DNA of 41,105 nt from Minisyncoccota bacterium (GCA_035708165.1 DASSSZ010000002.1:1-41105), one strand, 5' to 3'; positions 1 through 41,105 are shown, numbered from the stretch's first letter. Translations and numbers: made by a program. The notes: generated by a model from the letters alone, not told the origin.

Positions 1-1965
1 GGCGGCGAGGTTGGTGATGAAGCTGTTCGTCGCACGGGCAGGAGTGAAGTAGAGGTTCGATCCTTCAGCGAGGTTGGTCGTGGACTTCGTGCCGAGCCAG
101 AAGTCCGCGGAGGTGGTCGAGAAGCCGGAGACGTTCTGCTGCGTGAGCCAGTAATCGGCAGAGGTCGTGCTGTAGAAATATCCCTTGTCGAGCGAATTGA
201 GATACGTCTGCACGCGCGCGTCCGTGAAGTACTTATTGGCAGCGCCTTCGGCGAGGGCGTCGGTAGTAGTGGCATACCAGGATGCAAGCGGCAGGTACGC
301 CGCAAGCGACGTCGTCGCAAGGTAATCCGTGCCAGCGATCGCGGGGACCACGACCCCATCGGCGTCAGTCTTGAGGATCGCAGAGGGTGCGCTCGTGATC
401 GCGAGGCGCGAGGTCGTGGCACTCGAGGCTACGAGCCCCGTAATATCAGCGACAGACGCCGAGAGCGATCCTATGACGCCTCGCGTGAACGTGCCCACCG
501 ATGCGAAGAGATTGGTCGAAGTCGCGTTCGTGGTCGAGGCATCGACCGCGAAGAATGTAGTCGTAGTCGCATGCGTGCTCGACGCATTCGTGACCGAGAG
601 CACCTGCGTGCTCGTGCTGAACGTGAATGCAGGCGACCCGCCGAAGCTGCCGCCATCATTGAACTGGATCTGCGTCGCTGCGCCGCCCGGGTTCGCTCCG
701 ATGCCGCCTCCTGTCCCGTCGCCGAGAATGCCGAGCGTGGATGTGGCGACCCAGCGCGTCGATGTCCCGGTGGATAGCAGGACATACCCCGCTGTTCCTG
801 CCGAATCAGCGCTATCAAGGAGCGCTCCGCCGAGCCCGAGATTGCCCGTGAGCATCCCGCCGGAAAGCGCCAGGTATTGGCTCGCAGTGATATCGTCCGG
901 GATATCCGCATCCGTAAGGCCCGAGATCGCGCCGGTGAAAGTCACGCCCGAGAGCGTCACACCGCTCAGGTTGTCTATCCGCTGCGAAAGCGCGAGCGCA
1001 TTGCCGAATCCGCCGCTCGCCGGAAGGCTGCCGTTTGCGCTCAAGCCATCCAGCGATTGGCGCAGGCTGCCGATCTGCGACTCGAGATACGCCAGGTCCT
1101 GCGCGCTGGCGCCAGAAGAGGTCGCGGCGACGGTATAGCTATTGTTGTAGGTTTTGTACTCGTTCTTGGTGGTGTTGTTGTACGTGTTGTACACGTTGGT
1201 CACCGATGTGGTCGCGGCGGCAGGGGCGCTGGCAGGCACATTGGCCGCAAGGATTCCCGAAGCGGCAGGAACGACAGCGCGAGAAGCGGCAGGCTCCTGC
1301 TCCGCGAGCGCCGGCAAGCCGCGCATGACACGCAGCTCCTCGCCAAGGACAGGCACATGATCGAATGCGCCGCCGAACGCGAGCGCCGTGCCGCTCCCGA
1401 CTGTCAGGATCGCGCAGAGCGCCACGAGCGCAGGTGCGAGCCAGGGAGTAGTGCGCGCATGCTCGTGATATTCCTGCTGCCGTGCCAGCGAGAGCGCCAT
1501 CGCTGTCTCTACCTGCTGCTGGTGCTGCCGCTCGAAGAACGCTTCGAGCACGGGCACTCCCACGTACCAGGTGCGCCCGACCTGCTTGCCGGCGATCTTT
1601 CCTTCGCGACACAGGCGCGAGATGTAATCGTTCGTCACGCCGAAGCGCTGTGCTGCCTGCTGCGCAGAGAGCATGGACTGGCTTGCGAGATACTCCTCGC
1701 GCCGCATCTTCGCGAGCTCTTGGGCGCGTCGCTCCTGCTCATCATGCACGGAGGAGAGATACGATGCGAGCGATTGCTCATTCACGCACCATGTGCGGCC
1801 GTCGAGCACGCCGTCGACTTTGCCTTCGCGACACAGGCGCGCGATGTAATCGTTCGTGATGCCGAAGCGCCTTCCCGCTTCGGTCGAGGCGATGAGCGTG
1901 CTCGTCGCAGGCGGAATCTCTTCTGGCGAATTGCCTAGAGTTTCATTAGGTAGTTCGCCATTCAT
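1..1965 (-). CDS. Large membrane-anchored surface protein, 5' part (open at left edge): 2 tandem HTH_17/excisionase-like domains, TM helix, tail-fibre/adhesin-like repeats
   Basis: Hand translation of the minus frame is stop-free from the ATG at 1965 to base 1. It contains FGITNDYIARLCREGKVDG..GRTWCV and FGVTNDYISRLCREGKIAGKQVGRTWYV, a hydrophobic WLAPALVALCAILTVGSGTALAF segment, then YLALSGGMLTG, PGGAATQIQFNDGGSFGG and TTNLAEGSNLYFT-type repeats. TAAAAT -10 lies 9 nt upstream. Confidence 0.9.
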   Translation of the reverse strand, partial: MNGELPNETLGNSPEEIPPATSTLIASTEAGRRFGITNDYIARLCREGKVDGVLDGRTWCVNEQSLASYLSSVHDEQERRAQELAKMRREEYLASQSMLSAQQAAQRFGVTNDYISRLCREGKIAGKQVGRTWYVGVPVLEAFFERQHQQQVETAMALSLARQQEYHEHARTTPWLAPALVALCAILTVGSGTALAFGGAFDHVPVLGEELRVMRGLPALAEQEPAASRAVVPAASGILAANVPASAPAAATTSVTNVYNTYNNTTKNEYKTYNNSYTVAATSSGASAQDLAYLESQIGSLRQSLDGLSANGSLPASGGFGNALALSQRIDNLSGVTLSGVTFTGAISGLTDADIPDDITASQYLALSGGMLTGNLGLGGALLDSADSAGTAGYVLLSTGTSTRWVATSTLGILGDGTGGGIGANPGGAATQIQFNDGGSFGGSPAFTFSTSTQVLSVTNASSTHATTTTFFAVDASTTNATSTNLFASVGTFTRGVIGSLSASVADITGLVASSATTSRLAITSAPSAILKTDADGVVVPAIAGTDYLATTSLAAYLPLASWYATTTDALAEGAANKYFTDARVQTYLNSLDKGYFYSTTSADYWLTQQNVSGFSTTSADFWLGTKSTTNLAEGSNLYFTPARATNSFITNLAA
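1601..1870. repeat. 48-bp direct repeat (1601-1648 / 1823-1870) encoding the cores of the two HTH domains
   Basis: ccttcgcgacacaggcgcg(a/c)gatgtaatcgttcgt(c/g)a(c/t)gccgaagcgc; 3 mismatches, 222 bp apart (in frame). Confidence 0.9.
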
Positions 1966-2294
1966 CGTGATTCAATTTTATCGCTCAACTGCGCTCAAAA
2001 TGGCCCCATGCAAATGAGAATGGGGATAAGAAGAATATGCATGGAAACGCATGCGATCCGATCAGCAAAAGGGGATCGATACCCTCGCGAGCGTCATCCG
2101 TCGCTCACGTCCAGCCATCCTCCGGCCACTGATTTGAAGCACTGCAGGGGAGAGCCTATGGGGCATTCTCCGCCCAGGCGTATCCGGGAATACGGCGCAG
2201 CAAGCCGCGGTCGCAGGCGACACGGCGTCTCGGTCACTTCGACCATCATCATTTCCATCCCGCTTAGGCGAGATGCCGAGATTCCTTGTTTTTC

Positions 2295-2348
2295 AATCCG
2301 AGATTCCGAGATTATCGCTGTATATAAGTCATCTCGGAATCTCGGATT
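2295..2348. repeat. Perfect 18-bp inverted repeat with 18-nt AT-rich spacer (operator-like)
   Basis: aatccgagattccgagat (2295-2312) / atctcggaatctcggatt (2331-2348). Confidence 0.85.
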
Positions 2349-2350
2349 AT

Positions 2351-2396: not shown

Positions 2397-4925
2397 CTAC
2401 TCGACGATCCGCCAGCCTTGCGCGAGCATCAGCTCCGCCTTCTTGTACTTCACCGTCTGGGACTCTGAGCCGTTGGTGATGGTGACGCGATCGTTGCGAT
2501 CATGCTTCTTGGCGTGTGCGGCCGCCTGGCTCCCCTGCCCCTCCTTGGTGAGCTCGAGCGCGGCTGCGTGCACCTCTGAGAGCTGGGCCTGCTCGACTGG
2601 GGCCTGCTGGGCAGCCGGCTGGACTGAAGCCAGCTGCGTGATGAGGCGTACCACATCCTCGGCATAGGAAGCCTCGAGCTCCTGGAAGAGGCGGAGACCC
2701 TCCTTCTTGTACTCCACCAAAGGGTCGCGCTGCCCGTATGCGCGCAGGGAAACGCTGTTGCGGAGATAATCCATGGTCTCGAGCTGGTCCACCCAGAGCA
2801 TGTCGATCGTCTGGAGCATCAGGCGGCGGACGATTGCATAGTACGCGACCTCGCCGAGCTCCTGCTTCTTCTTCGCGAAGGCGGCGTGCGCTTCCTCATC
2901 GCCGTCGGCGATGCGCAGGAGCTCCTGGTCGATCGCCTCATTGCTCCCGAGCAGGAGCTCGCGTCGCCGCGCGTAGATGGTCTGGCGCTGCACGTTCAGC
3001 ACGTCGTCGTACGCGAGGACCTGCTTGCGGCCATCGAAGTGGAATTCCTCGATCTTGGTCTGCGCCTTCTCGAGCGAGCGGGTGATGATACGATTCTGGA
3101 TCGGCTCATCCTCCGGGATGCGGAAGGTCCCCATCAGGCTCTTGATCGTGTCCGCGGCGAAGACGCGCATGAGCGGGTCCTCGAGCGAGACGAAGAACTG
3201 GGTCTCCCCCGGGTCGCCCTGGCGGCCGGCACGGCCGCGGAGCTGATTGTCGATGCGTCGCGCCTCATGCCGCTCGGTGCCAAGCACGAAAAGGCCGCCG
3301 TTCTCCCGCACTTCCCGCTCGGCCTCGGGCGAGCCGGGATTGCCGCCGAGCTTGATGTCCACTCCGCGCCCGGCCATGTTGGTCGCGATCGTGACAGCGC
3401 CCGGGGCGCCGGCTTGGGCCACGATCTCCCCTTCCCGCTCGTGATTCTTCGCATTGAGGATCTCGTGCGGGATGCCTGCCTGCCGGAAGTGCGCGGAAAG
3501 GAGCTCGTTCTTCTCCACCGAGACGGTGCCGACGAGGACCGGCTGCCCTTTCTCATGGAGCTGCTTCACCTTCGCGCTGATCGCCTGGAACTTCCCCTTC
3601 TCCGTCTGGAAGATGAGGTCGTCGTGGTCGATGCGCGCGATCGGCTTGTTCGTGGGGATGGCGACGGTCGTGAGGCCATAGACCTTGTAGAACTCCTCGT
3701 TCGAGGTCACGGCGGTTCCGGTCATGCCGGCGAGCTTGTCGTAGAGGCGGAAGAAGTTCTGGAACGTGATGGATGCCATCGTGCGGCTCTCGCGCTGGAT
3801 GGGTACGCCCTCCTTCGCCTCGATCGCCTGGTGCAGCCCCTCGCTCCAGCGGCGGCCCGGCTGGAGGCGGCCCGTGAACTCGTCCACGATCACCACTTCC
3901 CCATCGCGCACTACGTAGTCGCGATCGCGCTCGTAGAGCGCCTCGGCCTGGACCGCCTTCTCGAGATGATGGACGTACTTGATGCCCTTATCCGTATAGA
4001 TATTTTCGAGGTTGAGCGCGCGCTCCGCCTTCTCGATGCCTGAATCCGAGATCTCGATCTGCTTGCGCTTCTCATCCACCTCGTAGTCCTCGCCGCGCGT
4101 GAGCGACTTGGCGATCGGGACGAACTGCTGATAGAGCGCTTCCGCCTCGGCGACCGGTGCCGAGATGATAAGCGGCGTACGAGCCTCGTCGATGAGGATC
4201 GAGTCGATCTCGTCCACGATGGCATAGGCATGCGCGCGCTGGCGGAGCATGGCCGGGTCGTACTCGAGGCTGTCGCGCAGATAGTCGAAGCCGTACTCGT
4301 TATTCGTGCCGTATGTGATATCGGCCGCATACGCTTCGCGGCGCTCGCAGGTGCGCAGGAAATCGTGCTCCACCTTGAAGGAACCGAGCTCATCGCGCTC
4401 CTGGTCATCTTCCGGCGTCGCCGTCTCGGCATCATAGAGGAACGAGACCTCGTGGTTGAGGACGCCGACCGTAAGCCCCAGGGCGTCATAGACCTGGCCC
4501 ATCCATGCCGCATCGCGGCGGGAGAGGTAATCGTTCACCGTGACTACGTGCACGCCCTTGCCCGCAAGCGCATTCAGATAGACCGGCAGCGTGGCCACCA
4601 GGGTCTTGCCCTCGCCCGTGCGCATCTCGGCGATGTTGCCCCAGTGCATGATGATGCCGCCCACGAGCTGGACATCGAAATGGCGCAGGCCGAGCGTGCG
4701 CTGGGCAGCCTCCCGGACGGCCGCGAACGCCTCGGGCAGGAGGTCGTCGAGCGTCTCGCCTGCCGCGAGGCGCTCCCGGAACCGGGCGCTGATGCCTGCG
4801 AGGTCGGCGTCCGTAAAGGCCCGGAACTCCTCCTCCCGGGCGTTGATCGCGGCGACGAGCGGCTCCGTCTTGCGCAGGAGCGCTGCCTGCTCATCGGTAC
4901 CCATCAGGCGTGAAAATAAGGCCAT
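2397..4925 (-). CDS. secA: Preprotein translocase ATPase SecA
   Basis: AEMRTGEGKT Walker A, VHVVTVNDYL, AIVDEIDSILIDEARTPLIIS, LRGRAGRQGDPG. Start placed at MALFSRL (4925) because TAGAAT lies 8 nt upstream. Confidence 0.97.
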   Translation of the reverse strand: MALFSRLMGTDEQAALLRKTEPLVAAINAREEEFRAFTDADLAGISARFRERLAAGETLDDLLPEAFAAVREAAQRTLGLRHFDVQLVGGIIMHWGNIAEMRTGEGKTLVATLPVYLNALAGKGVHVVTVNDYLSRRDAAWMGQVYDALGLTVGVLNHEVSFLYDAETATPEDDQERDELGSFKVEHDFLRTCERREAYAADITYGTNNEYGFDYLRDSLEYDPAMLRQRAHAYAIVDEIDSILIDEARTPLIISAPVAEAEALYQQFVPIAKSLTRGEDYEVDEKRKQIEISDSGIEKAERALNLENIYTDKGIKYVHHLEKAVQAEALYERDRDYVVRDGEVVIVDEFTGRLQPGRRWSEGLHQAIEAKEGVPIQRESRTMASITFQNFFRLYDKLAGMTGTAVTSNEEFYKVYGLTTVAIPTNKPIARIDHDDLIFQTEKGKFQAISAKVKQLHEKGQPVLVGTVSVEKNELLSAHFRQAGIPHEILNAKNHEREGEIVAQAGAPGAVTIATNMAGRGVDIKLGGNPGSPEAEREVRENGGLFVLGTERHEARRIDNQLRGRAGRQGDPGETQFFVSLEDPLMRVFAADTIKSLMGTFRIPEDEPIQNRIITRSLEKAQTKIEEFHFDGRKQVLAYDDVLNVQRQTIYARRRELLLGSNEAIDQELLRIADGDEEAHAAFAKKKQELGEVAYYAIVRRLMLQTIDMLWVDQLETMDYLRNSVSLRAYGQRDPLVEYKKEGLRLFQELEASYAEDVVRLITQLASVQPAAQQAPVEQAQLSEVHAAALELTKEGQGSQAAAHAKKHDRNDRVTITNGSESQTVKYKKAELMLAQGWRIVE

Positions 4926-4944
4926 GTCAGGCCATTCTAGCAAA

Positions 4945-4977
4945 GGAAACGCCCCGCTGCGAGAGCGGGGCGTTTCC
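4945..4977 (-). terminator. Terminator hairpin after the H1-like gene
   Basis: 14-bp stem ggaaacgccccgct/agcggggcgtttcc. Confidence 0.65.
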
Positions 4978-4990: not shown

Positions 4991-5167
4991 CTATTTGCGG
5001 CGACTGCTCTTCTTCGCAGTCTTGCGGTGCGTGGTCTTCTTCGCAGCCTTGCGATGAGTCTTCTTCGCGGCCTTCTTAGCGACCTTGCGATGGGTCGTCT
5101 TCTTCGCGGCTTTGCGATGAGTGGTCTTCTTGGCTGCCTTCTTGGCGTGAGTCTTCTTTGCTGCCAT
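4991..5167 (-). CDS. Small histone H1-like Lys/Ala-rich DNA-binding protein (58 aa)
   Basis: MAAKKTHAKKAAKKTTHRK... built from AAKKTTHRK repeats; 21 Lys, 6 Arg, no acidic residues; followed by its own hairpin. Confidence 0.85.
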   Translation of the reverse strand: MAAKKTHAKKAAKKTTHRKAAKKTTHRKVAKKAAKKTHRKAAKKTTHRKTAKKSSRRK

Positions 5168-5691: not shown

Positions 5692-6255
5692 TCAGATGCC
5701 GAAATGTTCCCGCAACGGCTTGTCGCGCTCGATCGACTCTACGATCAAGTACAGGATACTGCCGCTCGTACCAATGTCCGTCTTCAGCAGGCTTACGAAT
5801 TCTTCGCAATCATACGGATATACCCACGCACTATCCTGCAGGCGATAGAAGCCGAAAGCTGCCAATCGGCGACGGAATGCATCGCGCAGCCGGTGCCGAT
5901 TCTCTGGAATATCGAACATAACCATCCGCCACCGGCGATCCCACCGTCGCGGCTTCTTCGTTCCAGCCTCATGCCGTTGCAATTCTCGGCGGCCAGCTTC
6001 AGTTATCTCGATGTGCGTCCTCCCCGCAATAGTTACGAATCTGACCATGCCCTTTTCTGCAAGTCGGCTGGCAACGGACTTAAGGCGGTAAGAGAATTTG
6101 CTCTTGCTCCCCGTAATGCCGCCGAGCAACTGAATGACGTTCGGTGCCGCGGCGGCCAATACGACCAGGCCAGGGACTGCCACTGCCGCAAGCAACGCGC
6201 GCTGCACGTCTCCCCTCCTGCGAGCTGCACGCGCTTGATCTTCCTGCGCACCCAT
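5692..6255 (-). CDS. PaaX-family / Cas2-like domain protein (187 aa; N-terminal wHTH-like region plus Cas2-like ferredoxin domain)
   Basis: RWDRRWRMVMFDIPENRHRLRDAFRRRLAAFGFYRLQDSAWVYPYDC is typical of the PaaX central Cas2-like domain family common in CPR. TATGAT -10 lies 7 nt before the ATG at 6255. Confidence 0.88.
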   Translation of the reverse strand: MGAQEDQARAARRRGDVQRALLAAVAVPGLVVLAAAAPNVIQLLGGITGSKSKFSYRLKSVASRLAEKGMVRFVTIAGRTHIEITEAGRRELQRHEAGTKKPRRWDRRWRMVMFDIPENRHRLRDAFRRRLAAFGFYRLQDSAWVYPYDCEEFVSLLKTDIGTSGSILYLIVESIERDKPLREHFGI

Positions 6256-6262
6256 AGAGGAA

Positions 6263-6268
6263 ATCATA
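6263..6268 (-). promoter_or_regulatory. -10 box (TATGAT) of a leaderless promoter, abutting palindrome copy 2
   Basis: TATGAT-7 nt-ATG. Confidence 0.65.
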
Positions 6269-6269
6269 C

Positions 6270-6307
6270 ATCCCCACATCTGCGCGGCCGCGCAGATATG
6301 GGGATAG
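6270..6307. repeat. Palindrome copy 2 (38 bp, 1 mismatch to copy 1), over the promoter of the PaaX/Cas2-like gene
   Basis: atccccacatctgcgcggccgcgcagatatggggatag. Confidence 0.95.
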
Positions 6308-6875: not shown

Positions 6876-9083
6876 CTACTGCACCTTGAGCGTGCCGTTC
6901 CTGATCTGCGTGATCAGCGACTGCGCCTCAGACTTCACCGAAGCGTCCTGCGTGCTTGCCGCGATGGATTCGAGCTGGCTGATTGCCTTGCTCGTCTGGC
7001 CATCCTGGTAGTAGGCGGCTGCGAGCCCGAACTGCGCCTGGAGATTCTCCGGATGCGCCGCAAGGTAGCCCTGCCAGATCGAGATGAGCTTGCCGTACTG
7101 CTTGGTAGCCGCGTATGCCGCGACCACGCGCTGGTCCGCGATGATCCCCTTGCCGGCAAGATCGCTCACGAGCTGGTCCGCCTCGTCCGTCTTGCCATCG
7201 TAGATGGCTGCCATGGCGTAGAAGGCTTCGGCATCCGTATCGCTCGTATCGAGCTCGTACGTCTGCTTGAGGAGCTGGTAGGCCTGATCGTTCTGGCCGA
7301 GGGCGATCTGCGCGAGCGCGAGCTGGAAGCTGATCGTCTGCTTCGCCGGCGAGAGGTCGTGCGCCTTCTCGAGGCTCGGGAGCGCGCTCGTGGCATCGCC
7401 CGAGGAGGCAACGAGTGCGCCGAGGAAGAGCGGGAATCGCGCATCGAGCGGCGCTTCCTGCATCTGCTTCTGCATCTCGCTGGTGGCGAGCTGGTAGAAG
7501 CTGGTGCGCGTCGAGGTGGCGATGCTGGTCTGCCCGATCACATTCATCGCGATCTGCACGAGCTGCTCGCGGGTCTCCTGCTCGCCGAGGCTGTTATACG
7601 AGAGTGCCTTCTCGAAATCGTCGAGGCTGGCCTCCGGCGTCGACTGCGAGACAGCGGAAAGGAGCGCGCGATTCTGCTGGTAGGCGTTCCAGTTCACGAG
7701 GTAGACGGTCCCGAGGCCAAGCACGATGCCGGCAGCGGCAAGGTACGGCAGCGCGACCGCGGGGACGAACCCTCGCGCCGGAAAAGCAGGCGACCCGCCT
7801 TCGCGCGTCGCGCGTACCGCGATATAGCCCAGCACGAAGACGAACATGAGATAACTCGTGATGTTATCGAACACCACCATGTTATTGACCACATAGCCCG
7901 CAAGGAGGCCGGTGAGGAGCGCGCGTTCGAGCGGCGTGAAGGCGGCGCTCCGCCAGAGCATCCAGAGCGCGGCGACGAAGATGCCGCAGTACGCGAGGAA
8001 GCCGAGGAGGCCGCCCGCGATCAGCCAATCGAAGACGATGTTGTGCACGCGGTCGAACCACTGCTCCTGCGCCCACATGGCCGGGTTGTAGTACTTATCG
8101 AAGACGACGTTGTACTGCGACTGCCCCCACCCGAGGAGCATGCGCTGCGGGCTCTCCGTGAAGCCCTGCCATGCCATGCCCCAGTTCATGAATCGAGCGA
8201 TCGTCGTATCGTCCGTGAGCGAGATGGATGCAAGCCGGTGCAGCGGGCCCACTTTCTGCACGATCGGCGTATTGATGAGGAGGAAGAAGAGCCCGACCAG
8301 CACCACGAAGCCCCCGAGGATGCCGACACTCGCCTTCCACAGCACCTTCGATTCGCGGCCGATGAAGAGCATCAGGAACGCGGAGAACAGGACGCCAGCG
8401 AAGAGGCCGAGGATGGCCCCGCGCGTCTCGGTGAAGAAGAGGGAGAAGAACTGGAGCGCCATGATGGGCCCGAGCGCCCAGCCCCATCCGCGCCTGCCCT
8501 CGCGCCAGAGCTGCATCCAGAGCATCGCTGTGATGAAGAGCAGGAAGAGCATGTAGACGGCAAGGTAGGTGGAGTTGCCGAGGGTGGCATCGAGCCGCGT
8601 CGAGCCCTGGTCGATCGGAATCATCCCGATGAACTGCAGGATGCTATAGAAGCCCACGATGACCGAGATCCCGATATTGGTGGCGAAGAACCAGCGCCAG
8701 AGCCGCTCCACATGCAGCATCGAGCTCATGACCACGAAGAGGACGAAGAGGTGCGCGAGCGTCACCCAGCCCTCCATCCGCTCGAAGTTGCTCCAGAAGC
8801 TCTTGAAGGGATCCGTGCCCTGCAGATCCGCCACTGCGATGATCGCGATGAAGATCGCGAACGCACCGAGGAGCCAGGAGCGCTTCGGCCGGTACGTCGG
8901 CGAGACGAGCGCCAGCATGAGCCAGAGCGCTGCGATGAGCTCGACGACGACGCGGAAGAAGAAGTTCTTCCCCGTGATGAAGGGGAAGAACATGCTCTGA
9001 GTAATGATGAGCGGCACGATCGGCAGCACGAAGATGCCGCCGAGGATCGTCCACTTGAGGGCTTTCTCGATGAAGGTGTTCAT
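6876..9083 (-). CDS. O-antigen ligase/oligosaccharyltransferase-family membrane protein with C-terminal TPR repeats
   Basis: Multiple TM helices; RLDATLGNSTYLA, FTETRGAILG, LLGWGQSQY and DRVHNIVFDWL motifs; helical TPR-like C-terminus. Confidence 0.85.
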   Translation of the reverse strand: MNTFIEKALKWTILGGIFVLPIVPLIITQSMFFPFITGKNFFFRVVVELIAALWLMLALVSPTYRPKRSWLLGAFAIFIAIIAVADLQGTDPFKSFWSNFERMEGWVTLAHLFVLFVVMSSMLHVERLWRWFFATNIGISVIVGFYSILQFIGMIPIDQGSTRLDATLGNSTYLAVYMLFLLFITAMLWMQLWREGRRGWGWALGPIMALQFFSLFFTETRGAILGLFAGVLFSAFLMLFIGRESKVLWKASVGILGGFVVLVGLFFLLINTPIVQKVGPLHRLASISLTDDTTIARFMNWGMAWQGFTESPQRMLLGWGQSQYNVVFDKYYNPAMWAQEQWFDRVHNIVFDWLIAGGLLGFLAYCGIFVAALWMLWRSAAFTPLERALLTGLLAGYVVNNMVVFDNITSYLMFVFVLGYIAVRATREGGSPAFPARGFVPAVALPYLAAAGIVLGLGTVYLVNWNAYQQNRALLSAVSQSTPEASLDDFEKALSYNSLGEQETREQLVQIAMNVIGQTSIATSTRTSFYQLATSEMQKQMQEAPLDARFPLFLGALVASSGDATSALPSLEKAHDLSPAKQTISFQLALAQIALGQNDQAYQLLKQTYELDTSDTDAEAFYAMAAIYDGKTDEADQLVSDLAGKGIIADQRVVAAYAATKQYGKLISIWQGYLAAHPENLQAQFGLAAAYYQDGQTSKAISQLESIAASTQDASVKSEAQSLITQIRNGTLKVQ

Positions 9084-12643: not shown

Positions 12644-12644
12644 A

Positions 12645-33371: not shown

Positions 33372-33407
33372 CTGAGGCGCCTTTCTTGCTGGAATGCTGG
33401 TTGTATT

Positions 33408-33446: not shown

Positions 33447-34358
33447 TTACTTCTTCCTGTCGAGGTACCCGGCGACCGTCACGAGGAGCGGCGTCGCGAG
33501 CGCGATCGAGGAGTAGGTGCCGGCGATGATGCCGATCAGGAGCGTCAGGGCGAAATCCTGCGTGGAGACCGGGCCGAGGAAGAAGAGCGCAAGGAGCGAG
33601 ACGGCCACCGTGAGCGAGGTATTCACCGAGCGCGTGAAGGTCTGGTTGAGCGAGGTACCAGCGATCATCTCGAAACGCTCGCGCGCCTGCTTCGGCTCCG
33701 CCTTGCGCAGGTTCTCGCGCACGCGGTCGAAGACCACGATGGTGTCGTGCACCGAGAAGCCGAGGATGGTGAGGATAGCGGTCACGAAGAGCGCGTCCGC
33801 CTGGATCCCGAAGAAGTGGCTCATGGCGGCGAAGAAGCCTACCGGCACGACGACATCGTGCGCGAGCGCGATGAGCGCGATCAGGCCATACACCCAGGAG
33901 GACACCGGCCGGGAGACCGAGCGGAACGCGAACGTGATGAAGCAGACGATGGCGAGGAGCACGAGCACGAGCGCGAGCCACGCCTTCTGCGCGAGCTCAT
34001 TGCCGATGGTCGGGCCGACCTGGTCGAGCGCCACGATGGTCGTCGGGTACTTCCCGTTCACCGAGAAGGCGGCGGGGAGCGCCTTACGCGCCTGGTCCGA
34101 GACGGTCTGCGTCTCAAGGAAGTACTCGTTCTCGCCGGAGGGGCGCAGCGAGTAGTTCGCGATGCCGATGTTCGTCAGCGGGCCATCGAGCTCGCTCGCG
34201 GCCGGCCGGGTGCTCGAGGCGTAGCTCACCTCGACCGAGGTGCCGCCGGTGAAATCGATCCCCGGGTTGATGCCCCATGCGATCGTCGCGGCAAGCGCGC
34301 AGACGACGATGACCGCCGAGATCGCATAGAACACCTTCCTGTACGTGACGATAAGCAT
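33447..34358 (-). CDS. secF: Protein translocase subunit SecF
   Basis: GIDFTGGT, VGPTIGNEL, HDVVV, GFSVHDTIVVFDRVREN, TRSVNTS, GTYSSI. Confidence 0.96.
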   Translation of the reverse strand: MLIVTYRKVFYAISAVIVVCALAATIAWGINPGIDFTGGTSVEVSYASSTRPAASELDGPLTNIGIANYSLRPSGENEYFLETQTVSDQARKALPAAFSVNGKYPTTIVALDQVGPTIGNELAQKAWLALVLVLLAIVCFITFAFRSVSRPVSSWVYGLIALIALAHDVVVPVGFFAAMSHFFGIQADALFVTAILTILGFSVHDTIVVFDRVRENLRKAEPKQARERFEMIAGTSLNQTFTRSVNTSLTVAVSLLALFFLGPVSTQDFALTLLIGIIAGTYSSIALATPLLVTVAGYLDRKK

Positions 34359-34362
34359 AGTA

Positions 34363-35667
34363 TTAGATGCGGAACTTCGTGCCGCTGCTATAGAGAAACC
34401 GCGCCAGCCGCTTGCGGCGATCGAGGCCGAGGGCGACGAGGAGCGTGCGGGAGGCCGAGATGGCAGTCAGCATGGAGACGAGGACGCCGATGCCGAAGAC
34501 GAGCGCGAAGCCCTTCACCAGCGCGGTGCCGAACCAGTAAAGGATGATCGCCGTGATCATGCTCGAGAAGTTGCTGTCGCGGATGGACGGCCATGCGCGG
34601 GCGAAGCCTTCCTTCACCGCCTCGCGGGTGTCCTTCCCTGCCGCGAGCTCTTCGCGGGTACGCTCGAAGATGAGGATGTTCGCATCCACCGCCATGCCGA
34701 TCGAGAGGATGAAGCCGGCGATGCCCGCGGCGGTGAGGGTGACCGGGATCAGCTTGAAGACCGCGAGCATCGCGACGATGTAGAGGATGAGCGCGACCGA
34801 GGCGACCACACCGGGCAGGCGGTACCACAGGAGCATGAAGATCCCGACGAGGAGGACGCCCCAAATGCCCGCCATGATGCCATCGGCGACCGCCTGGCTG
34901 CCGAGCGTGCTGCCGATCGTCTGCGTGGAGAGGAGCGTGATCGGCACCGGCAAGGCGCCGAAGTTGAGATCCTGCGCAAGGGTCTTCGCCTGCTCCGGCG
35001 TGAAGCTCCCCTGGATGATCGCCTGGCCGTCCGTGATCGGCTCCTGCACCGTCGGCGTCGAGATCGGCTGACCGTCGAGGAAGATGCCGATCACATGCCC
35101 CACGTTATTCGTCGTGAGCGTCGCGAAGAGCTGCTTGCCCTTGCTGTTGAACGTGAGCGCGACCACCGGCTGGTTCGCGAGCGAGCCCGTCGTGTTCATG
35201 AACTGGAGCTGCGCGTTCGAGAGGTACTCGCCGGTGAGGCCGGTCGCGATGAAGGACGGTGTCGTAGTGCCCGGAGTCGTGGTCTCGAGGCGGAAGTCGA
35301 GGACCGGCGTCTTGCCGATGAGGTCGATCGCCTCCTGCGTGTCGGTCACGCCCGGCAGCTCGACGACGAGGCGCTGGCCGCCCTGGCCGGTCACGCCACC
35401 CTGCTCCGTGTAGACGGACGGCTCGGCGACGCCGAACGCGTCAATGCGGCGCTCGATCGTGCTGCGCAGGGCGTCCATGGCGCCGCCCACATCGCTCCCT
35501 TCAGCGAGCTTGCTCGTGTCGGCGCTGTAGACGAGGCGGGTGCCGCCTGAGAGATCGAGCCCGAGCTCGAACGGGCGCCATCCGCCCGTCTGCGAGGCAT
35601 AGACGAACCATCCGATGGCGCAGCCCACGATCAGGACCGCGAGCGCTGCCAGCCGTTTCTGCAACAT
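34363..35667 (-). CDS. secD: Protein translocase subunit SecD
   Basis: LGLDLSGG, IERRIDAFGVAEP, GMAVDANILIFER, VKGFA; start at MLQKRL with TATACT 7 nt upstream. Confidence 0.96.
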   Translation of the reverse strand: MLQKRLAALAVLIVGCAIGWFVYASQTGGWRPFELGLDLSGGTRLVYSADTSKLAEGSDVGGAMDALRSTIERRIDAFGVAEPSVYTEQGGVTGQGGQRLVVELPGVTDTQEAIDLIGKTPVLDFRLETTTPGTTTPSFIATGLTGEYLSNAQLQFMNTTGSLANQPVVALTFNSKGKQLFATLTTNNVGHVIGIFLDGQPISTPTVQEPITDGQAIIQGSFTPEQAKTLAQDLNFGALPVPITLLSTQTIGSTLGSQAVADGIMAGIWGVLLVGIFMLLWYRLPGVVASVALILYIVAMLAVFKLIPVTLTAAGIAGFILSIGMAVDANILIFERTREELAAGKDTREAVKEGFARAWPSIRDSNFSSMITAIILYWFGTALVKGFALVFGIGVLVSMLTAISASRTLLVALGLDRRKRLARFLYSSGTKFRI

Positions 35668-35710
35668 AGGCAGTAGTATACGCACCCGCGGGCAACGCGC
35701 AATAGAGCCC

Positions 35711-36508
35711 TTAGAGAGCCCTCCGGGCGAGGTCGGCGAGGTTTGCGAAGAGCATCGCGACCGCCACCGGCCCCACGCCGCCCGGGACCGGCGTGAAGAC
35801 GCTTGCGACATCCGCGCAGCGCGGGTCCGCATCGCCTACGACCTTGCCGCCGGATTCCGAGGTCCCCGCATCGATCAAGACGCAGCCGGGCATGAGCATC
35901 GCCGGCGTGATGAGGCCGGGGCTGCCGGCGCCAGCGACGACGATGTCCGCGCTCGCAAGGGACGCAAGGCTCCCCTGCTCGAGCGTGACGACCTCGACCG
36001 CGGCGCCGGCTGCGCGGAGCGCGGCGCTGCACGGCGCGCCGACGAGCCTCCCGTCGCCGATGACGACGGCACGCTTCCCGCCCGGGACGACGCCGGCATC
36101 GTCGAGGATGGCGAGCACGGCGCGCGCGACAGGGGCCATCGCGACCCGCTCCCTTTCCGGCACCTGCGGGTTGAGCGCATCCGCATCGCGTTCGCGCGGG
36201 ATGGCGGCAAGCACGGCGTCCGTATCGAGCGCCTGCGGGAGCGGGAGCTGCACCACGACGCCCATGCAGCGCCTGGCAAGCGCCGCGACCGCGGCGATTG
36301 CTTCCTCAGTCGTGGCACGCTCCGGGAGATCGATCCGCTCGAGCGGGATGAAGAGCCGCTGCGCGGCGCGCGTCTTGATCCGCACGAACGATTCGGTCGC
36401 CGCATCCCCTGCCGCAAGCAGGATCCCGAGTGCAGGACGCTCCTCGGCGAAGCGCGCTTCGAGATCCTGGTAGATGCGCTCGGCGAGCGCGCGGCCATCT
36501 ATGATCAT
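35711..36508 (-). CDS. folD: Bifunctional methylenetetrahydrofolate dehydrogenase/cyclohydrolase
   Basis: MIIDGRALA, VQLPLP, ADIVVAGAG, IDAG, GDAD, TPVPGGVGP. Confidence 0.95.
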   Translation of the reverse strand: MIIDGRALAERIYQDLEARFAEERPALGILLAAGDAATESFVRIKTRAAQRLFIPLERIDLPERATTEEAIAAVAALARRCMGVVVQLPLPQALDTDAVLAAIPRERDADALNPQVPERERVAMAPVARAVLAILDDAGVVPGGKRAVVIGDGRLVGAPCSAALRAAGAAVEVVTLEQGSLASLASADIVVAGAGSPGLITPAMLMPGCVLIDAGTSESGGKVVGDADPRCADVASVFTPVPGGVGPVAVAMLFANLADLARRAL

Positions 36509-37863
36509 GCCTTGCCTTGGGCTCCCACGAGGAGCTTCACCGTCTGGAAGATGATATGGATATCGAGCAGGATCGAACGGTGCTTCATGTAGTAGAGGTC
36601 GTACGCGAGCTTCTGCTTCGTCTCGGCGATGTCGGTGCCGTGGTGCGGGTCGCCGCGATGGCGCAGGCGCGCCCAGCCGGTGAGCCCCGGCGCGATCAGG
36701 TGGCGCGCATTGTAGAACGGGATCTTCGCTGCATACTGCGCAGCCAAGGCCGGCAGCTCAGGCCGCGGGCCGACGAAGGAGATGTCGCCGCCCAACAGGC
36801 TGATGAACTGTGGGAACTCATCGAGGTGCGTCTTGCGCAGGATGCGGCCGACCTTCGTGACGACGAGATTGGACTTGCCGCCCTCGTACTTGCCGTCGTC
36901 GTTGCCGGTCATGCTGCGGAACTTGAGGATGCGGATCGTCTTCCCGTACCGGCCGATGCGCTCCTGCGCGATGAACGCACTGCCACCGTCCTCGAGCTTG
37001 ATCGCGAGTGCGATGAAGGGATAGAGCACGGAGAGCACGAGGCAGCCGATGATCCCGAGGATGATGTCGAGCGCGCGCTTCAGCGCGTCGTACGTGGTGG
37101 ACCGGCCGACATTCGAGAGCACCCAGTCGTACCGCAGGTGCGCGAGCGGCACTTTCTCGAAGACGTCCTCGTAGAGCAAGGCGAGGTCAATGAACGCGAA
37201 CTGCGGCGCGCTGAACGCGACGTCGTACACGATCGGCAGGATGGCACTCATCAGGGGCGAGGTCGTGTCAGCCACGATTATCGATGCCTCGCGCTTCTCC
37301 TCGATGATGCGGCACAGCTGCTGGACGACTTCTGCCATCGGCGCGGCATCGGTATCGATCACCTGCGTGAAGATGAACGGGTAGTGCGGATTATCGTTCA
37401 CCTCGGCGACCAGTTCCTCGACAGCGCTCCCGGAGCCGAGCAGGACCGCCGGCTGGCGCGCGTGCGCGAAGTACCACCGGAAGAGGTACACCCGCCAGAG
37501 GAAGATGAGGCCGGAGGAGACGACGAGATAGATGGCGAGCACGGTCTTCGGCGCGATGCCGAAGCCCGGCACGAAGAAGAAGAACAGGGCGGCGAGCGCG
37601 ATATTGATCGTCTGCGCGTAGAGGATCGTCTCCGGAAGCCGCGCGCGCAGGAGCCGCGTGGTGCGATCGTAGAGCCCGGCCAGGAGGAAGACGAACGCCC
37701 AGCCCACGAAGAGGATGGCGAACGGCTCGAGGTGCTCGAGGAAGAGATCGAACGAGGGGAACGCGAGCGCGCGGATCGTGAGCGTCAGCCAGAGCGCCAC
37801 AACGAACGTGACGATATCGCCCGCGAGGAGGACGAAGGGGTCGCGCTTTGGTACTATGGACAT
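36505..37863 (-). CDS. Polyprenyl-phosphate priming sugar transferase (WcaJ/WbaP-like)
   Basis: N-terminal TMs; KRALDIILG, RIGRYGK..KFRSM, LDEFPQ, SFVGPRPE, PGLTGWA, YDLYY. Confidence 0.92.
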   Translation of the reverse strand: MSIVPKRDPFVLLAGDIVTFVVALWLTLTIRALAFPSFDLFLEHLEPFAILFVGWAFVFLLAGLYDRTTRLLRARLPETILYAQTINIALAALFFFFVPGFGIAPKTVLAIYLVVSSGLIFLWRVYLFRWYFAHARQPAVLLGSGSAVEELVAEVNDNPHYPFIFTQVIDTDAAPMAEVVQQLCRIIEEKREASIIVADTTSPLMSAILPIVYDVAFSAPQFAFIDLALLYEDVFEKVPLAHLRYDWVLSNVGRSTTYDALKRALDIILGIIGCLVLSVLYPFIALAIKLEDGGSAFIAQERIGRYGKTIRILKFRSMTGNDDGKYEGGKSNLVVTKVGRILRKTHLDEFPQFISLLGGDISFVGPRPELPALAAQYAAKIPFYNARHLIAPGLTGWARLRHRGDPHHGTDIAETKQKLAYDLYYMKHRSILLDIHIIFQTVKLLVGAQGKA

Positions 37864-37920
37864 GTCAGGCTCATCCTACACCGAAGCCATCCCGGAGCAA
37901 GCAGCCTCCCTGTCCGTCCT

Positions 37921-39087
37921 ATGCCTAGAAAGAGAATCCTGTACGTGATCACGAAATCGAATTTCGGGGGTGCGCAGCGCTACGTGTACGACCTCGCGAC
38001 CTCGCTCCCGAAGGACAGCTTCGAGGTCGCCGTCGCGTTCGGCGGATCCGGCGCGGCCGGCGAGGGTGAGGGCGTCCTCGCCGGGCTCCTCGCGAATGCC
38101 GGCGTCAGGACCATCCACGTGCCCGAGCTCGCGCGCGATATCGATCTCGCAACCGACCTCGCTGCCTACCGCGCGCTGACCGCGCTCTTTCTCGCCGAGG
38201 AGCCCGATGCGGTGCACCTCAACAGCTCGAAGGCAGGCGGCCTGGGGGCGCTCGCCGCGCGGCGCGCCGGCATCCCCCGCATCATCTATACCGCGCATGG
38301 CTGGCCGTTCACTGAGCGCGTCTCGCCTATCGCGAAGGCCGTGCGCTTCCTGCTCTCGTACGCGACCGCGCTCCTCTCTACCGCGATCATCTGCGTCTCG
38401 AAGAGCGATCGGCGCGCCGCGCGGCGCATGCCGTTCATCGGCCGCAAGCTCATCGTGATCCATAACGGCGCCCGGCCGATTGCAGGCACGCTCGACCGAG
38501 AGGCTGCCCGCGCTGCGCTCAGCACGAGCCCCGAGGAGCAGGCGCAGCACGCGCACGACCTCTGGGTCCTCTCGATCGCGGAGCTCGTTCCGAACAAGAA
38601 CCTCTTCCGCGCGGCGCGAGCCGTCGCGCTTGCGAATGAGGGCGGCGCCGTCCCGCGCATCTTCCTCACCATCTTCGGCGAGGGGCAGGAGCGCAAGCGG
38701 CTCGAGGATTTCCTCGATGCGCAGGATCTCGCTGGCACGGTGCGCCTTGCCGGGTTCGTGCCGGAAAGCCGCCGCTACCTCGCAGCTTTCGACGCGCTGC
38801 TCTTGCCGTCGCTCAAGGAGGGGTTCCCCTACGCGATCCTCGAGGCGGCGGCCGCAGGCCTCCCTGTCGCCGCAAGCGCGGCGGGCGGCATCCCTGAGAT
38901 CATCGTGCACGGCCAGACCGGCCTCCTGATCGAGCACCCGGCCGATGCGCAGGATATCGCGCGCGAGCTCAACAGCCTCCGCGATCCGGCATACCGCGAG
39001 CTGCTGGCCAATGGCCTGCATGATCGCGCTGAGCAGGAATTCTCGTTCGAGGCGATGCGCGCCGCGACGATCGCGCTCTACCAGTAG
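37921..39087 (+). CDS. Glycosyltransferase family 4
   Basis: ILYVITKSNFGGAQRY, HLNSSKAG, YTAHGW, KEGFPYAILEAAAAGLPV. Confidence 0.92.
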   Translation: MPRKRILYVITKSNFGGAQRYVYDLATSLPKDSFEVAVAFGGSGAAGEGEGVLAGLLANAGVRTIHVPELARDIDLATDLAAYRALTALFLAEEPDAVHLNSSKAGGLGALAARRAGIPRIIYTAHGWPFTERVSPIAKAVRFLLSYATALLSTAIICVSKSDRRAARRMPFIGRKLIVIHNGARPIAGTLDREAARAALSTSPEEQAQHAHDLWVLSIAELVPNKNLFRAARAVALANEGGAVPRIFLTIFGEGQERKRLEDFLDAQDLAGTVRLAGFVPESRRYLAAFDALLLPSLKEGFPYAILEAAAAGLPVAASAAGGIPEIIVHGQTGLLIEHPADAQDIARELNSLRDPAYRELLANGLHDRAEQEFSFEAMRAATIALYQ

Positions 39088-39098: not shown

Positions 39099-40262
39099 CT
39101 AGAGCACCGGCGCAGGAACGAACTCCTCCTTTATGGATTCGGGCCGCGTCACGCGCGCATAGCGCCGCATCCCCATCAGCATCCCGAGCCCGAGGTACTC
39201 CATCACGAGGTGCGAGCCGCCGTAGCTCATGAACGGCACCGTGGTGCCGGTGACCGGCAGCAGGCCGAGGTTGATGCCGACATGCACGATGAAATGGCTC
39301 GTGAAGAGGCAGGCGAGCCCCACGGCGAAGAGCGTCTCGAAATTGCTGCCGCCGCGGTACGCGAGCGCGAGCACGCGCCAGATGATGATGCCGTAGAGCG
39401 CGAACATCAGCAGCACTCCGATCAGGCCCCACTCCTCCGCGAACGCCGCGAAGATGAAGTCGGTCTGGTACTCGGGCAGGAACTTCAGCTTGCTCTGCGT
39501 GCCGTACCCGATCCCCTTGCCCGTGAGGCCGCCTGAGCCGATCGCGATCACGGCCTGGTAGGCGTTGTAGCCGGACCCCTGGATATCGGAGAGCGGATGC
39601 AGGAACGTGAGCACGCGCTGCTTCTGGTAATCATGGAGCCCGTACTGCCACATGCCGAGGGCCGCGACGAGGCCGATCGCGAGCACGATGAAAAGGTGCT
39701 TCTTCGAGATGCCGGAAACGAGCACCATGCCGAGCCAGATGGATGCGAGGATGATGCCGCTCCCGAGGTCCGGCTGCAGCACGATCAAGGCGAACGGTAT
39801 GAAGGCATAGAGCCCGGAGATGAGCACATGCCGGAATTGCGCGATATCGATATGCCGTCTCGCGAAATACTTCGCGAGTACGATGACGAGCACGAGCATG
39901 GTGAAGTCGGCCGGCTGGATCGCGACCGTGCCGAGCCGGAACCAGCTCTGCGCGCCGTTGCTGACGTGCCCGATCACGAGGACGACGAGGAGCGCCGCGA
40001 CGACTGCGCCGTAGAGCGCGACGACGGGCACGGTCTGCCGCAGGAAGCGGTAATCGGCCATGCTCGCCCCGAGAAAGATGACGAGGGAGATCGCGAGCCA
40101 GAGCAGCTGATGATCGAAATAGGCGTTCGCGTCCGAGAAGGAGTACATCGTCACCAGCCCGAATGCGGAGAGGAGGACGGCAGCGCCGAGGAGCGGCCAG
40201 TCGATGACTCTCCAAAAAGCGACGCGGGTGGCGCCGCGCCGTGCGCGCAGCAGGGACAGCAT
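39099..40262 (-). CDS. rodA: SEDS-family peptidoglycan glycosyltransferase RodA/FtsW
   Basis: GAQSWF..IQPADF, QPDLG, YQKQRV, SGYNAYQA..IGSGG, LPEYQTDFIFAAFAEEWG, PVTGTTVPFMSYGGS. Confidence 0.9.
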   Translation of the reverse strand: MLSLLRARRGATRVAFWRVIDWPLLGAAVLLSAFGLVTMYSFSDANAYFDHQLLWLAISLVIFLGASMADYRFLRQTVPVVALYGAVVAALLVVLVIGHVSNGAQSWFRLGTVAIQPADFTMLVLVIVLAKYFARRHIDIAQFRHVLISGLYAFIPFALIVLQPDLGSGIILASIWLGMVLVSGISKKHLFIVLAIGLVAALGMWQYGLHDYQKQRVLTFLHPLSDIQGSGYNAYQAVIAIGSGGLTGKGIGYGTQSKLKFLPEYQTDFIFAAFAEEWGLIGVLLMFALYGIIIWRVLALAYRGGSNFETLFAVGLACLFTSHFIVHVGINLGLLPVTGTTVPFMSYGGSHLVMEYLGLGMLMGMRRYARVTRPESIKEEFVPAPVL

Positions 40263-40264
40263 AC

Positions 40265-41038
40265 CTAGCGGGCGGCCATGACCGCCGGCGCGATCACGGG
40301 CAGGACGTCGATGCGCGCCGGCGCGACCGGGAACGGATCAGGCCATGTGAAGACGAGGCGCTTCGTGGCGCCCCCGGCGAGCTGGCCGACGTAGGTCTTC
40401 GAGGTCGCGATGGCGTTGCCGGCCGGATCGAATGCCGTCGCCACGTACGTGATCGCGTCGCGGTCGGTCACGTCGGTATTCGTGACGTCGGTGGTGATCG
40501 TCGGGGCGGCGTTCGTGTTCGCCGCGCGCGTGTTCGCGACGATGAGCTGCGCGCCCGGGTTCGTCGCCGCGACCCAGGAGAGCGGCGCGGTAAACTTGAA
40601 GAAGGTATGCGCGATATCCCGGCTGCCGGTGCTGATACCGCCCACGTAGACAGGCGTCGTCGCCCCCGCCATGATAGTCGTCGTGCCCGAGCGCTCGCCG
40701 ACAAGGACGTTGTTCGCGTCGTAGAAGCTGAACGTGTACGGCACCGCGAGGACTGCTGCGCCGTGATTAGGATTGAGGAGGTACGCGATGGCGCCATACT
40801 CGCCCTGGCGCACCTCGAACGCGCGCGCCCATTCGACGGAGACCGACTGGAGCGTCGCGGGATCGAGCGCGACGCACGGGCCGCCGAGGTCCGGGGCCGT
40901 CTCGCCTTCGTTCTGGATGCCGTCAGAGCAGGTGGGGGCGTGGTAGAGCGCCCGGGCGACCGGGACCGCTGCTGCGACGACGATGACGAACAGGACGCCG
41001 AGGAAGTAGAGCAGGCGGCGACGTGAAGCCCAAGACAT
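40265..41038 (-). CDS. Conserved hypothetical exported protein (N-terminal TM, CSDGIQNEGE..GGPC motif, beta-rich domain)
   Basis: MSWASRRRLLYFLGVLFVIVV signal-anchor; TATACT lies 8 nt before the ATG at 41038. Confidence 0.75.
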   Translation of the reverse strand: MSWASRRRLLYFLGVLFVIVVAAAVPVARALYHAPTCSDGIQNEGETAPDLGGPCVALDPATLQSVSVEWARAFEVRQGEYGAIAYLLNPNHGAAVLAVPYTFSFYDANNVLVGERSGTTTIMAGATTPVYVGGISTGSRDIAHTFFKFTAPLSWVAATNPGAQLIVANTRAANTNAAPTITTDVTNTDVTDRDAITYVATAFDPAGNAIATSKTYVGQLAGGATKRLVFTWPDPFPVAPARIDVLPVIAPAVMAAR

Positions 41039-41105
41039 ATGGAGGCAGTATAGCGCAGCAGGCTCCGAGCCAAAAGCGAAGCCCCGCGTGAGGAGGAACC
41101 GCAAG

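Follow-up and report, generated by a model that had tools for sequence, protein, structure and literature searches.

Promoter-like -10 boxes just before start codons point to largely leaderless expression in a Kaiserbacteria contig with an altered anti-Shine-Dalgarno sequence

In a 41.1-kb stretch of DNA from a Minisyncoccota bacterium (GCA_035708165.1 DASSSZ010000002.1:1-41105; 41,105 nucleotides (nt), approximately 63% GC; hereafter the window), 20 of the 34 mapped protein genes carry a -10 promoter hexamer of the form TAnnnT (hereafter the box) that ends 6 to 9 nt before the ATG, and the 16S rRNA encoded in the same window has lost the CCUCC core of its anti-Shine-Dalgarno (anti-SD) sequence. 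From this arrangement we consider it likely that the majority of transcription units yield leaderless or near-leaderless mRNAs, with minorities of genes that are coupled to an upstream stop codon or are preceded by a leader. The majority of the gene calls are supported by Pfam, and the genes that could be named include secA, secDF, folD, rodA, murA, a Mur ligase gene, rsmI, a VirD4-like ATPase gene and a large glycosylation cluster, together with one 16S rRNA, one tRNA-Ile and one tRNA-Leu. Because SecD shares 61-73% identity with proteins that carry the name Candidatus Kaiserbacteria or Paceibacterota and the gene order is common to those contigs, we assign the host to Candidatus Kaiserbacteria (Parcubacteria/Paceibacteria, candidate phyla radiation, CPR); a run search with the window matched soil and rhizosphere DNA metagenomes, and the host would thus be a soil organism.

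The first-pass annotation had listed 16 boxed genes, and each of these 16 combinations of hexamer, spacer and ATG is present in the sequence; four further boxed starts were added here (ATG 11577, 14323, 16337 and 25026, the last being rsmI). The hexamer lies 6 nt before the ATG in four genes, 7 nt in six, 8 nt in four and 9 nt in six, against about 0.3 genes at any other offset. The combination of TAnnnT, a spacer of 6-9 nt, an ATG and an open reading frame (ORF) of 80 codons or more is found 26 times, as compared with 3.1 +/- 1.9 times (maximum 9) in 200 dinucleotide shuffles, and the box is found at 59% of the starts (20/34) but at only 1.2% of the ATGs that are not starts (17/1373). When all 1280 hexamer patterns with three of the six positions fixed were enumerated, TA...T ranked first in the window (p = 9.5e-18). 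The earlier claim of a non-random hexamer at a set distance stands up to positional comparison with shuffled sequence. Among the genes that are not coupled, 20 of 26 (77%) are boxed, and same-strand neighbours only 11-34 nt apart each have a box of their own.

Coordinates of the boxed starts run over the hexamer, the spacer and the ATG and are on the minus strand except where stated. TGC-TAGAAT stands 8 nt before the secA ATG (4923-4939; terminator hairpin 4950-4967 directly upstream), TGC-TACGAT 6 nt before the ATG of the Mur ligase gene (26332-26346, plus strand; terminator hairpin 26285-26308 upstream), TGC-TATGCT 6 nt before the murA ATG (29241-29255; terminator hairpin 29272-29291 upstream) and TATACT 7 nt before the secD ATG (35665-35680), where the box is preceded at 16 nt by a -35 element, TTGCGC. 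The gene of a helix-turn-helix-repeat protein, which leaves the window at its left end, has TAAAAT at 9 nt (1963-1980) and a PaaX/Cas2-like gene has TATGAT at 7 nt (6253-6268). An O-antigen-ligase/TPR gene with TATACT at 9 nt (9081-9098) is divergent from a wzx-type flippase gene with TACTAT at 7 nt (9157-9172, plus strand), 86 bp separating the two. Two methyltransferase genes belong to the newly added starts, one with TAGACT at 9 nt (11575-11592; the box is within the upstream gene, and this is the weakest case) and one with TG-G-TATGAT at 7 nt (14321-14336). A UDP-glucose-dehydrogenase-like gene has TACAAT at 8 nt (15237-15253), and two GT4 glycosyltransferase genes have TACCAT at 9 nt (16335-16352; newly added, again within the upstream gene) and TATCAT at 6 nt (17408-17422). 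In both epimerase genes the upstream gene's TAG stop codon forms the first bases of the box, which is TAGAAT (18389-18384) at 8 nt in one (18373-18389) and TAGGAT (20458-20453) at 9 nt in the other (20441-20458). The list is completed by a sugar transferase gene with TG-TAGGAT at 9 nt (37861-37878), a gene for a hypothetical protein of 257 residues (MSWAS...) with TATACT at 8 nt (41036-41052), and three genes whose orthologues in the Kaiserbacteria locus L082 all retain a box: the VirD4/TraG-like ATPase gene (TATACT at 6 nt, 23935-23949; TATACT at 8 nt in the orthologue), the gene of an 81-residue membrane protein (TGC-TATACT at 7 nt, 24297-24312; TATACT at 6 nt in the orthologue) and the newly added rsmI (TATGAT at 7 nt, 25024-25039; TATCAT at 8 nt in the orthologue, the N-terminus being MGTLS in both).

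That the boxes are sigma-70-type -10 elements is suggested by flanking features that the search for TAnnnT did not select: G is present at -14 in 15 of the 20 boxes, TGn in seven, and a G directly follows the hexamer in 11. TATACT, the commonest hexamer before the ATGs of the window, is also the -10 of the 16S rRNA promoter (TTGACT-16-TATACT, 32366-32393, minus strand), which is located just after a terminator hairpin (32407-32432). Genes whose products are not translated show the same element, since TGnTAnnnT precedes the mature 5' ends of tRNA-Leu or tRNA-Ile by 8-13 nt in the window and in four relatives (loci L015, L023, L082 and L087, at 8-9 nt); in the window, TGC-TATACT (TGCTATACT, 27903-27911, minus strand) lies 13 nt before the mature 5' end of tRNA-Leu (27889). 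At secD, the arrangement TTG-17-TA(t/g)ACT-7..10-ATG is kept in seven Kaiserbacteria in which the other bases have diverged, and the MSWAS hypothetical gene has a box 6-8 nt upstream in 7/7 Kaiserbacteria. At secA, murA and the Mur ligase gene a terminator-like hairpin ends within a few nt of the box, on its upstream side, and a 17-bp-stem palindrome (6269-6306, minus strand; CCCCATATCTGCGCGGCCGCGCAGATGTGGGG) adjoins the box of the PaaX/Cas2-like regulator gene; as a more distant promoter would have to read through these structures, they leave little room for one. The palindrome itself could be an autoregulatory operator or the terminator of the upstream unit. Few obvious -35 elements had been reported, and this agrees with a best -35 score of 2.70 against a background of 2.45: upstream of boxed genes we found no enrichment of -35 elements over background, and a promoter scanner that requires both hexamers returned no excess (7 against 5.9, and 5 against 3.0). 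As sequence evidence, the flanking bases, the rRNA and tRNA promoters, the conserved -35 TTG at secD, the adjoining terminators and the absence of the box from coupled genes indicate that the boxes are a promoter element and not a ribosome-binding site.

The spacing of 8-13 nt before the tRNA genes would give precursors with a 5' leader of 0-6 nt, and such near-leaderless tRNAs, as predicted from the boxes, recall the leaderless transcription of tRNAs in organisms without RNase P. For tRNA-Ile, the window has TGC-TACTAT (TGCTACTAT, 30101-30109, minus strand) 9 nt before a 35-nt copy of the 5' half of the gene (30057-30091), which is identical in 34 of 35 bases and lies 81 nt upstream of the intact tRNA-Ile (29902-29975, minus strand). 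Since the orthologues in L015, L023 and L087 have the box 9 nt before the intact tRNA-Ile, where the window has it before the half copy, this suggests that a local duplication or insertion moved tRNA-Ile approximately 117 nt away from its own promoter.

The boxed ATGs correspond to the expected N-termini of the proteins. Positions 1 to 7 of the Pfam profiles align with residues 3 to 11 of SecA (SecA_DEAD position 7 at residue 11), both epimerases (profile position 1 at residue 3 for the gene starting at 18375), RsmI, the Mur ligase, MurA and FolD; Met1 of SecD is invariant among 29 homologues, as are Arg5 and Ala8, and the murA start is identical in the public gene call. The public, Prodigal-type call (L001) of the Mur ligase gene begins at ATG 26389 instead of 26344 and loses 15 residues; this ATG is preceded by a GGAGG that lies within the conserved GIGGVG motif, and the call looks like an error of a caller biased towards SD sequences. 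Assuming that transcription usually starts at the seventh nucleotide after the hexamer, a spacer of 6 nt places the predicted start on the A of the ATG, and with a spacer of 7 nt this A is the eighth nucleotide. With a spacer of 8 nt the seventh nucleotide is a purine in 4/4 genes, predicting a leader of 2 nt, and with a spacer of 9 nt a purine is found at position 7 or 8 in most genes, predicting a leader of 2-3 nt. The leaders of 0-3 nt proposed in the first-pass annotation are thus what the geometry of the boxes predicts, and every sequence-level test that we ran agrees with them.

The 16S rRNA gene (30755-32210, minus strand) has no adjoining 23S rRNA gene and ends in the tail GGAUUCAUUCCAAA (30755-30768, minus strand), in which the CCUCC core has become AUUCC; the reported loss of the anti-SD is upheld by cmscan, which aligns an intact helix 45 followed by this tail where the consensus is GGAUCACCUCCUUU. 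CCUCC is likewise missing from the tails of four Kaiserbacteria loci (GGATTCATTCCAAA in L082 and L084, GGAATCATTCAAA in L087 and L088) and of three other Parcubacteria loci (GGAATAATT, GGAATATTTCAAG and GGAACATATCCAA in L007, L015 and L023, respectively). Among 120 metagenomic 16S genes that share the helix 45 of the clade (loci L090 onward), a single one keeps the canonical GGATCACCTCCT. The tails of the clade are not random: most of the 120 read GGA-[AT][TC]A-[AT]TTC-[AC]-A, with a conserved UUC at the former CCUCC site. No 23S rRNA gene was found within the window, where the 16S gene is followed by a 780-nt spacer with hairpins (29976-30754) and then by tRNA-Ile, corresponding to an unlinked rRNA operon. 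In relatives, ORFs for LAGLIDADG endonucleases were observed near the rRNA genes (L087 662-1123, L088 18616-19071 and L089 122-535).

Besides the 20 boxed genes, the window contains about eight genes coupled to an upstream stop codon without a box or a clear SD, three genes with SD-like motifs and three unclear cases (ATG 5167, 33371 and 37921). All the coupled genes are on the minus strand, their ATG being at -4 to +6 nt relative to the upstream stop. The ATG of rodA is 2 nt past the stop, without box or SD (40260-40267); that of secF is 4 nt past the secD stop (34356-34365), that of a GT1 gene (12643) 1 nt past the upstream stop (12641-12647) and that of an acetyltransferase gene (10917) 6 nt past it (10915-10926). 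Stop and start overlap as ATGA between the sugar transferase gene and folD (36505-36508), between the VirD4-like gene and an LTD/PKD protein gene starting at 22030 (22027-22030) and between a methyltransferase gene and a GT1 gene starting at 13682 (13679-13682), and as TGATG between an epimerase gene and a GT4 gene whose coupled start at 19586 is probable (19584-19588). The SD-like motifs are GGAGG, 8 nt before ATG 25394 of a gene for a 288-residue hypothetical protein (25381-25385, plus strand), GAGGAG, 7 nt before ATG 29726 of a double cold-shock-domain gene (29734-29739, minus strand), and AGGAG, 6 nt before ATG 32880 of a gene for a 147-residue hypothetical protein (32887-32891, minus strand). 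None of these three genes has a -10 box, and the two classes are mutually exclusive in the window. The statement that none of the genes has an SD is therefore correct for the boxed genes, none of which has GGAG or GAGG at a spacer of 4-12 nt, and does not extend to the whole window.

The SD-like motifs of the form GGAG(G) peak at a spacer of 5-8 nt in a few genes and are never found alongside a box. Three Watson-Crick pairs and one G-U pair can form between GGAG and UUCC, and SD-like motifs were found in 10 of 34 genes (29%) beside 16S genes with a UUCC tail against 37 of 341 (11%) beside other tails (Fisher p = 0.005, with small numbers); the Kaiserbacteria loci show the same trend. This minority may reflect weak residual pairing, recent gene acquisitions or SD-biased gene callers, and we regard it as a lead and not as a finding. 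An arrangement in which SD-type sites would serve the remaining genes does not describe the window, as only three of the 14 unboxed genes are SD-like and the upstream regions have no global affinity for either the altered or the canonical tail. We also considered a new SD that would match the altered tail, and rejected it: duplex energies equal those of the controls, and GGAA and GAAT have no positional peak.

Two of the three unclear genes have a recognisable promoter-like sequence farther upstream. A promoter TTGACA-16-(TG)CAAAAT (33405-33432, minus strand) has a -10 that ends 33 nt before ATG 33371, which predicts a leader of about 27 nt. The plus-strand GT4 gene starting at ATG 37921 is divergent from the sugar transferase gene and lacks a box next to its start; the closest one, TACTAT at 37851-37856, would imply a leader of about 57 nt without SD, and the orthologues of this gene have a box 10-15 nt from the ATG, so that the spacing is not fixed in every gene. 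A minus-strand ORF at 37876-39021 was dropped, the Pfam-supported gene of this region being the plus-strand GT4 gene. As regards the third, a gene for a 58-residue Lys/Ala-rich protein with KKAAKKTTHRK repeats and a histone-H1-like composition (4991-5167, minus strand), we found no Pfam match, box or SD; 524 nt without a supported gene lie upstream of it.

Relatives of the window were collected in two ways. A search of genome contigs with a SecD alignment gave, among the matches listed, a best identity of 59% and no Kaiserbacteria, and these loci were used as a broad panel; the Kaiserbacteria loci were obtained by exact-protein look-ups. Genes were called without regard to the motif, from the first ATG and codon statistics, and the caller was validated against independent calls. 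For six Kaiserbacteria loci, independent calls place a box at 6-9 nt before 26 of 104 genes where 5.2 are expected, TA...T ranks 1/1280 (p = 7e-12) and the start codon is ATG in 101/104. In the 22 closest Parcubacteria species (GC 34-63%; 215 genes), 74 genes (34%) are boxed against 18 expected (p = 1e-26), TA...T again ranks 1/1280, the boxes most often read TATACT, TATAAT or TAAAAT, and G is found at -14 of 46% of the boxes against a background of 20%, while SD 4-mers are at expectation (14 against 14.5). Other CPR loci (272 genes) have 75 boxes against 34 expected and 25 SD 4-mers against 15.2, and Chloroflexi (201 genes) have 20 boxes against 3.5 and 60 SD 4-mers against 21. By contrast, the controls (Gastranaerophilales, Firmicutes and similar; 147 genes) show the opposite of the clade, with the box below expectation (13 against 26) and SD 4-mers above it (59 against 7). 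Of 390 genes that neighbour the 120 metagenomic 16S genes, about 30% have a box where about 10% would be expected. This enrichment across relatives makes the architecture a property of the clade and not of the window.

These observations can be brought together in the following model. An RNA polymerase with a sigma-70-type factor would recognise an extended -10 element, in which TAnnnT (mostly TATACT) often follows a TGn or a G at -14, usually without a -35, and, given that the hexamer ends 6-9 nt before the ATG, would start transcription either on the first base of the ATG or 1-3 nt before it. The ribosome would then directly recognise the AUG at the 5' end, presumably in a 70S-type leaderless initiation without SD:anti-SD pairing, which would fit the change of the tail from CCUCC to AUUCC. 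As no cistron of an mRNA but the first can be leaderless, genes of the same strand would need a box of their own even where they are tightly spaced, and some of these boxes would be accommodated inside the upstream gene or take its TAG stop codon as their first bases; such per-gene boxes are expected if only a 5'-terminal AUG is usable and internal initiation has to proceed without SD. The coupled genes (start at -4 to +6 nt from the upstream stop) would presumably be translated by termination-reinitiation, and a small leadered minority with GGAG-type motifs may use weak pairing with the residual UUCC.

Several alternatives have to be weighed against this model. That the pattern is a matter of chance or an artefact of annotation, the ATGs having been picked for the AT-rich hexamers near them, is suggested by the fact that starts were chosen by the earlier reader, and partly during the follow-up, with the motif known; it is refuted by the counts in shuffled sequence and at non-start ATGs, by the recurrence of the peak with gene calls made by others and in more than 140 other loci treated with the motif-blind first-ATG caller, and by the retention of the boxes at orthologous genes, and we leave it next to no probability. 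A more serious alternative takes TAnnnT as a translation signal, i.e. a non-SD ribosome-binding site or an AU-rich enhancer comparable to that of GeneMarkS-2 group B, on mRNAs that would be leadered and largely polycistronic; the element could be bound by bS1 or could merely unfold the start region in a high-GC RNA. It accounts for elements inside same-strand clusters with gaps of 11-34 nt and even within upstream genes, and GeneMarkS-2 reads such an element before cluster-internal genes as a ribosome-binding site and not as a promoter (PMC6028130). Against it, the enriched pattern is a gapped TA...T with G at -14, which is neither generic AT-richness nor a contiguous word complementary to rRNA; the hexamers have no complementarity to the 16S tail, and the duplex energies of the upstream regions with their own or with the canonical tail equal those of control regions. 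Moreover, TGnTAnnnT also precedes untranslated tRNA and rRNA genes at promoter distances, the box is missing at tightly coupled genes (rodA, folD, secF and others), and a -35 TTG is conserved 16-17 bp upstream at secD. We therefore hold a translation signal to be unlikely.

The boxes could also be genuine promoters of leaderless mRNAs that are not translated as such, proteins being made from a downstream start codon or from transcripts that originate at promoters farther upstream. Several genes do have a second in-frame ATG within 10 codons (for example secA at 4904, and the site at 24278), yet the conserved N-termini begin at the boxed ATG (Met1, Arg5 and Ala8 of SecD), the Rossmann motif starts at residues 3-8 in both epimerases, the domain profiles for rsmI, murA and the Mur ligase align from position 1 or 2 at residues 3-6, and the terminator hairpins directly upstream disfavour read-through as the main source of mRNA; we judge this alternative likewise unlikely. 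Expression from leaderless or near-leaderless mRNAs thus remains the reading that we prefer, and the following points count against it. The earlier description of the pattern as window-wide applies to the 20 boxed genes only, since about eight genes are stop-start coupled without a box and three have SD-like GGAG motifs. Canonical-looking GGAG(G) sequences stand at SD distance in these three genes and in several small genes of L082 and L084 despite the missing CCUCC, so that recognition of the SD type may to some extent survive, or the genome may have a second rRNA copy outside the window. In the tail, the anti-SD has been changed to AUUCC and not deleted, and its UUCC could pair weakly with GGAG or GGAA. 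The choice of ATG at 6255, 14323, 16337 and 24299 was swayed by the box, although at a rate of 1.2% per ATG a choice among nearby ATGs would give about two to three boxed genes and not 20. The boxes within upstream coding sequence (11577 and 16337) could be due to chance. Spacers of 8-9 nt exceed the 6-8 nt of mycobacteria and imply leaders of 1-3 nt or an unusual selection of the start site. Finally, the one RNA run that matched the window (X9) yielded, over four stretches, pieces of rRNA and a few contigs of 150-200 nt away from gene starts; a run search with the Hainich groundwater Parcubacteria locus L040 matched no RNA run.

The closest known arrangement is that of the Actinobacteria and Deinococcus-Thermus, which GeneMarkS-2 places in its group C, defined by a Pribnow box 6-8 nt before first cistrons and comprising 90% of Actinobacteria and 97% of Deinococcus-Thermus (PMC6028130); leaderless architecture was also described by Zheng 2011 (PMC3160421). 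Leaderless mRNAs have been verified experimentally in Mycobacterium tuberculosis (Cortes 2013; PMC3898074), in Deinococcus deserti, where they make up 60% of the mRNAs (de Groot 2014; PMC4007540), and in D. radiodurans (PMC12340547). The window resembles these bacteria in having TAnnnT a few nt before first-cistron starts, no SD at these starts, a weak or absent -35 and the G or TG of an extended -10, and its boxed fraction is comparable to or above that of Deinococcus (about 30-60%). In contrast, Actinobacteria and Deinococcus-Thermus retain a canonical anti-SD and use SD sequences on leadered and internal genes, whereas here CCUCC is lost and internal genes have no SD and lie at stop-start junctions or have their own box; spacers are 6-9 and not 6-8 nt, ATG is almost exclusive, promoters are placed per gene, and the lineage belongs to the CPR. 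Haloarchaea and Sulfolobus (GeneMarkS-2 group D) likewise have a majority of leaderless transcription units and rely little on SD, but their promoter is a TATA/BRE element at about -26, as against the bacterial -10 box of the sigma-70 type at -7 to -15 in the window. Mammalian mitochondria have a small-subunit rRNA without anti-SD and leaderless mRNAs; they differ as organelles with a handful of processed mRNAs, dedicated factors and no arrangement of promoters at the ATG. With the Bacteroidetes type (group B) the window shares the rarity of SD motifs upstream of genes. Bacteroidetes retain the anti-SD but sequester it. The window does not belong to group B, the motif being missing at coupled genes and the anti-SD core being missing, where group B has an A-rich motif before all genes, internal ones included, on leadered mRNAs (PMC6028130).

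Loss of the anti-SD in Parcubacteria is already published: Tsurumaki 2022 found the CCTCCT motif missing from the 16S 3' end in about half of them (48% detection), left the mode of translation start open and made no mention of leaderless mRNAs (PMC9297842). The present loci are like these anti-SD-less Parcubacteria, as CCUCC is missing in the window, in seven related loci and in 119/120 metagenomic 16S genes; beyond that work, a candidate mechanism is supplied and a recurring tail, GGA-WYA-WTTC-M-A, is described. Our searches of the open-access literature gave no paper that connects leaderless mRNAs with Parcubacteria, Patescibacteria or CPR, such an absence being no proof.

Two other regions of the window were observed. 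The segment 10000-14400 is a low-GC island (51-54% against about 65%) with glycosyltransferase, methyltransferase and acetyltransferase genes, mostly stop-start coupled, and probably represents a glycan cassette that was acquired horizontally or evolves fast. The gene at 1-1965 (minus strand) encodes a large protein in which helix-turn-helix segments recur (FGITNDYIARLCREGKV-type repeats; HTH_17 match) and continues past the window edge.

The model proposed here offers a testable answer to the question, left open for anti-SD-less Parcubacteria, of how they begin translation (PMC9297842), and would place a very large, uncultured clade among the few bacteria in which leaderless genes predominate. 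In such metagenome-assembled genomes, gene callers trained on SD sequences put starts in the wrong place, as in the Mur ligase example, and a logic of promoters at the ATG could improve the annotation of starts and operons across CPR genomes. We are evenly divided on whether the proposal holds across the Parcubacteria/Paceibacteria clade, in which SD-led initiation would have been abandoned, the anti-SD would have decayed to AUUC(C/A), about a third to more than half of the genes would be leaderless with their own minimal extended -10, the rest would be translated by stop-start reinitiation, the tRNAs would be made nearly without a 5' leader, and the SD-like class would track the UUCC tail. 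The model also bears on the ideas that leaderless initiation is ancestral or was regained in reduced genomes. If true, this clade would be the first large bacterial lineage with an initiation landscape like that of a mitochondrion or a haloarchaeon.

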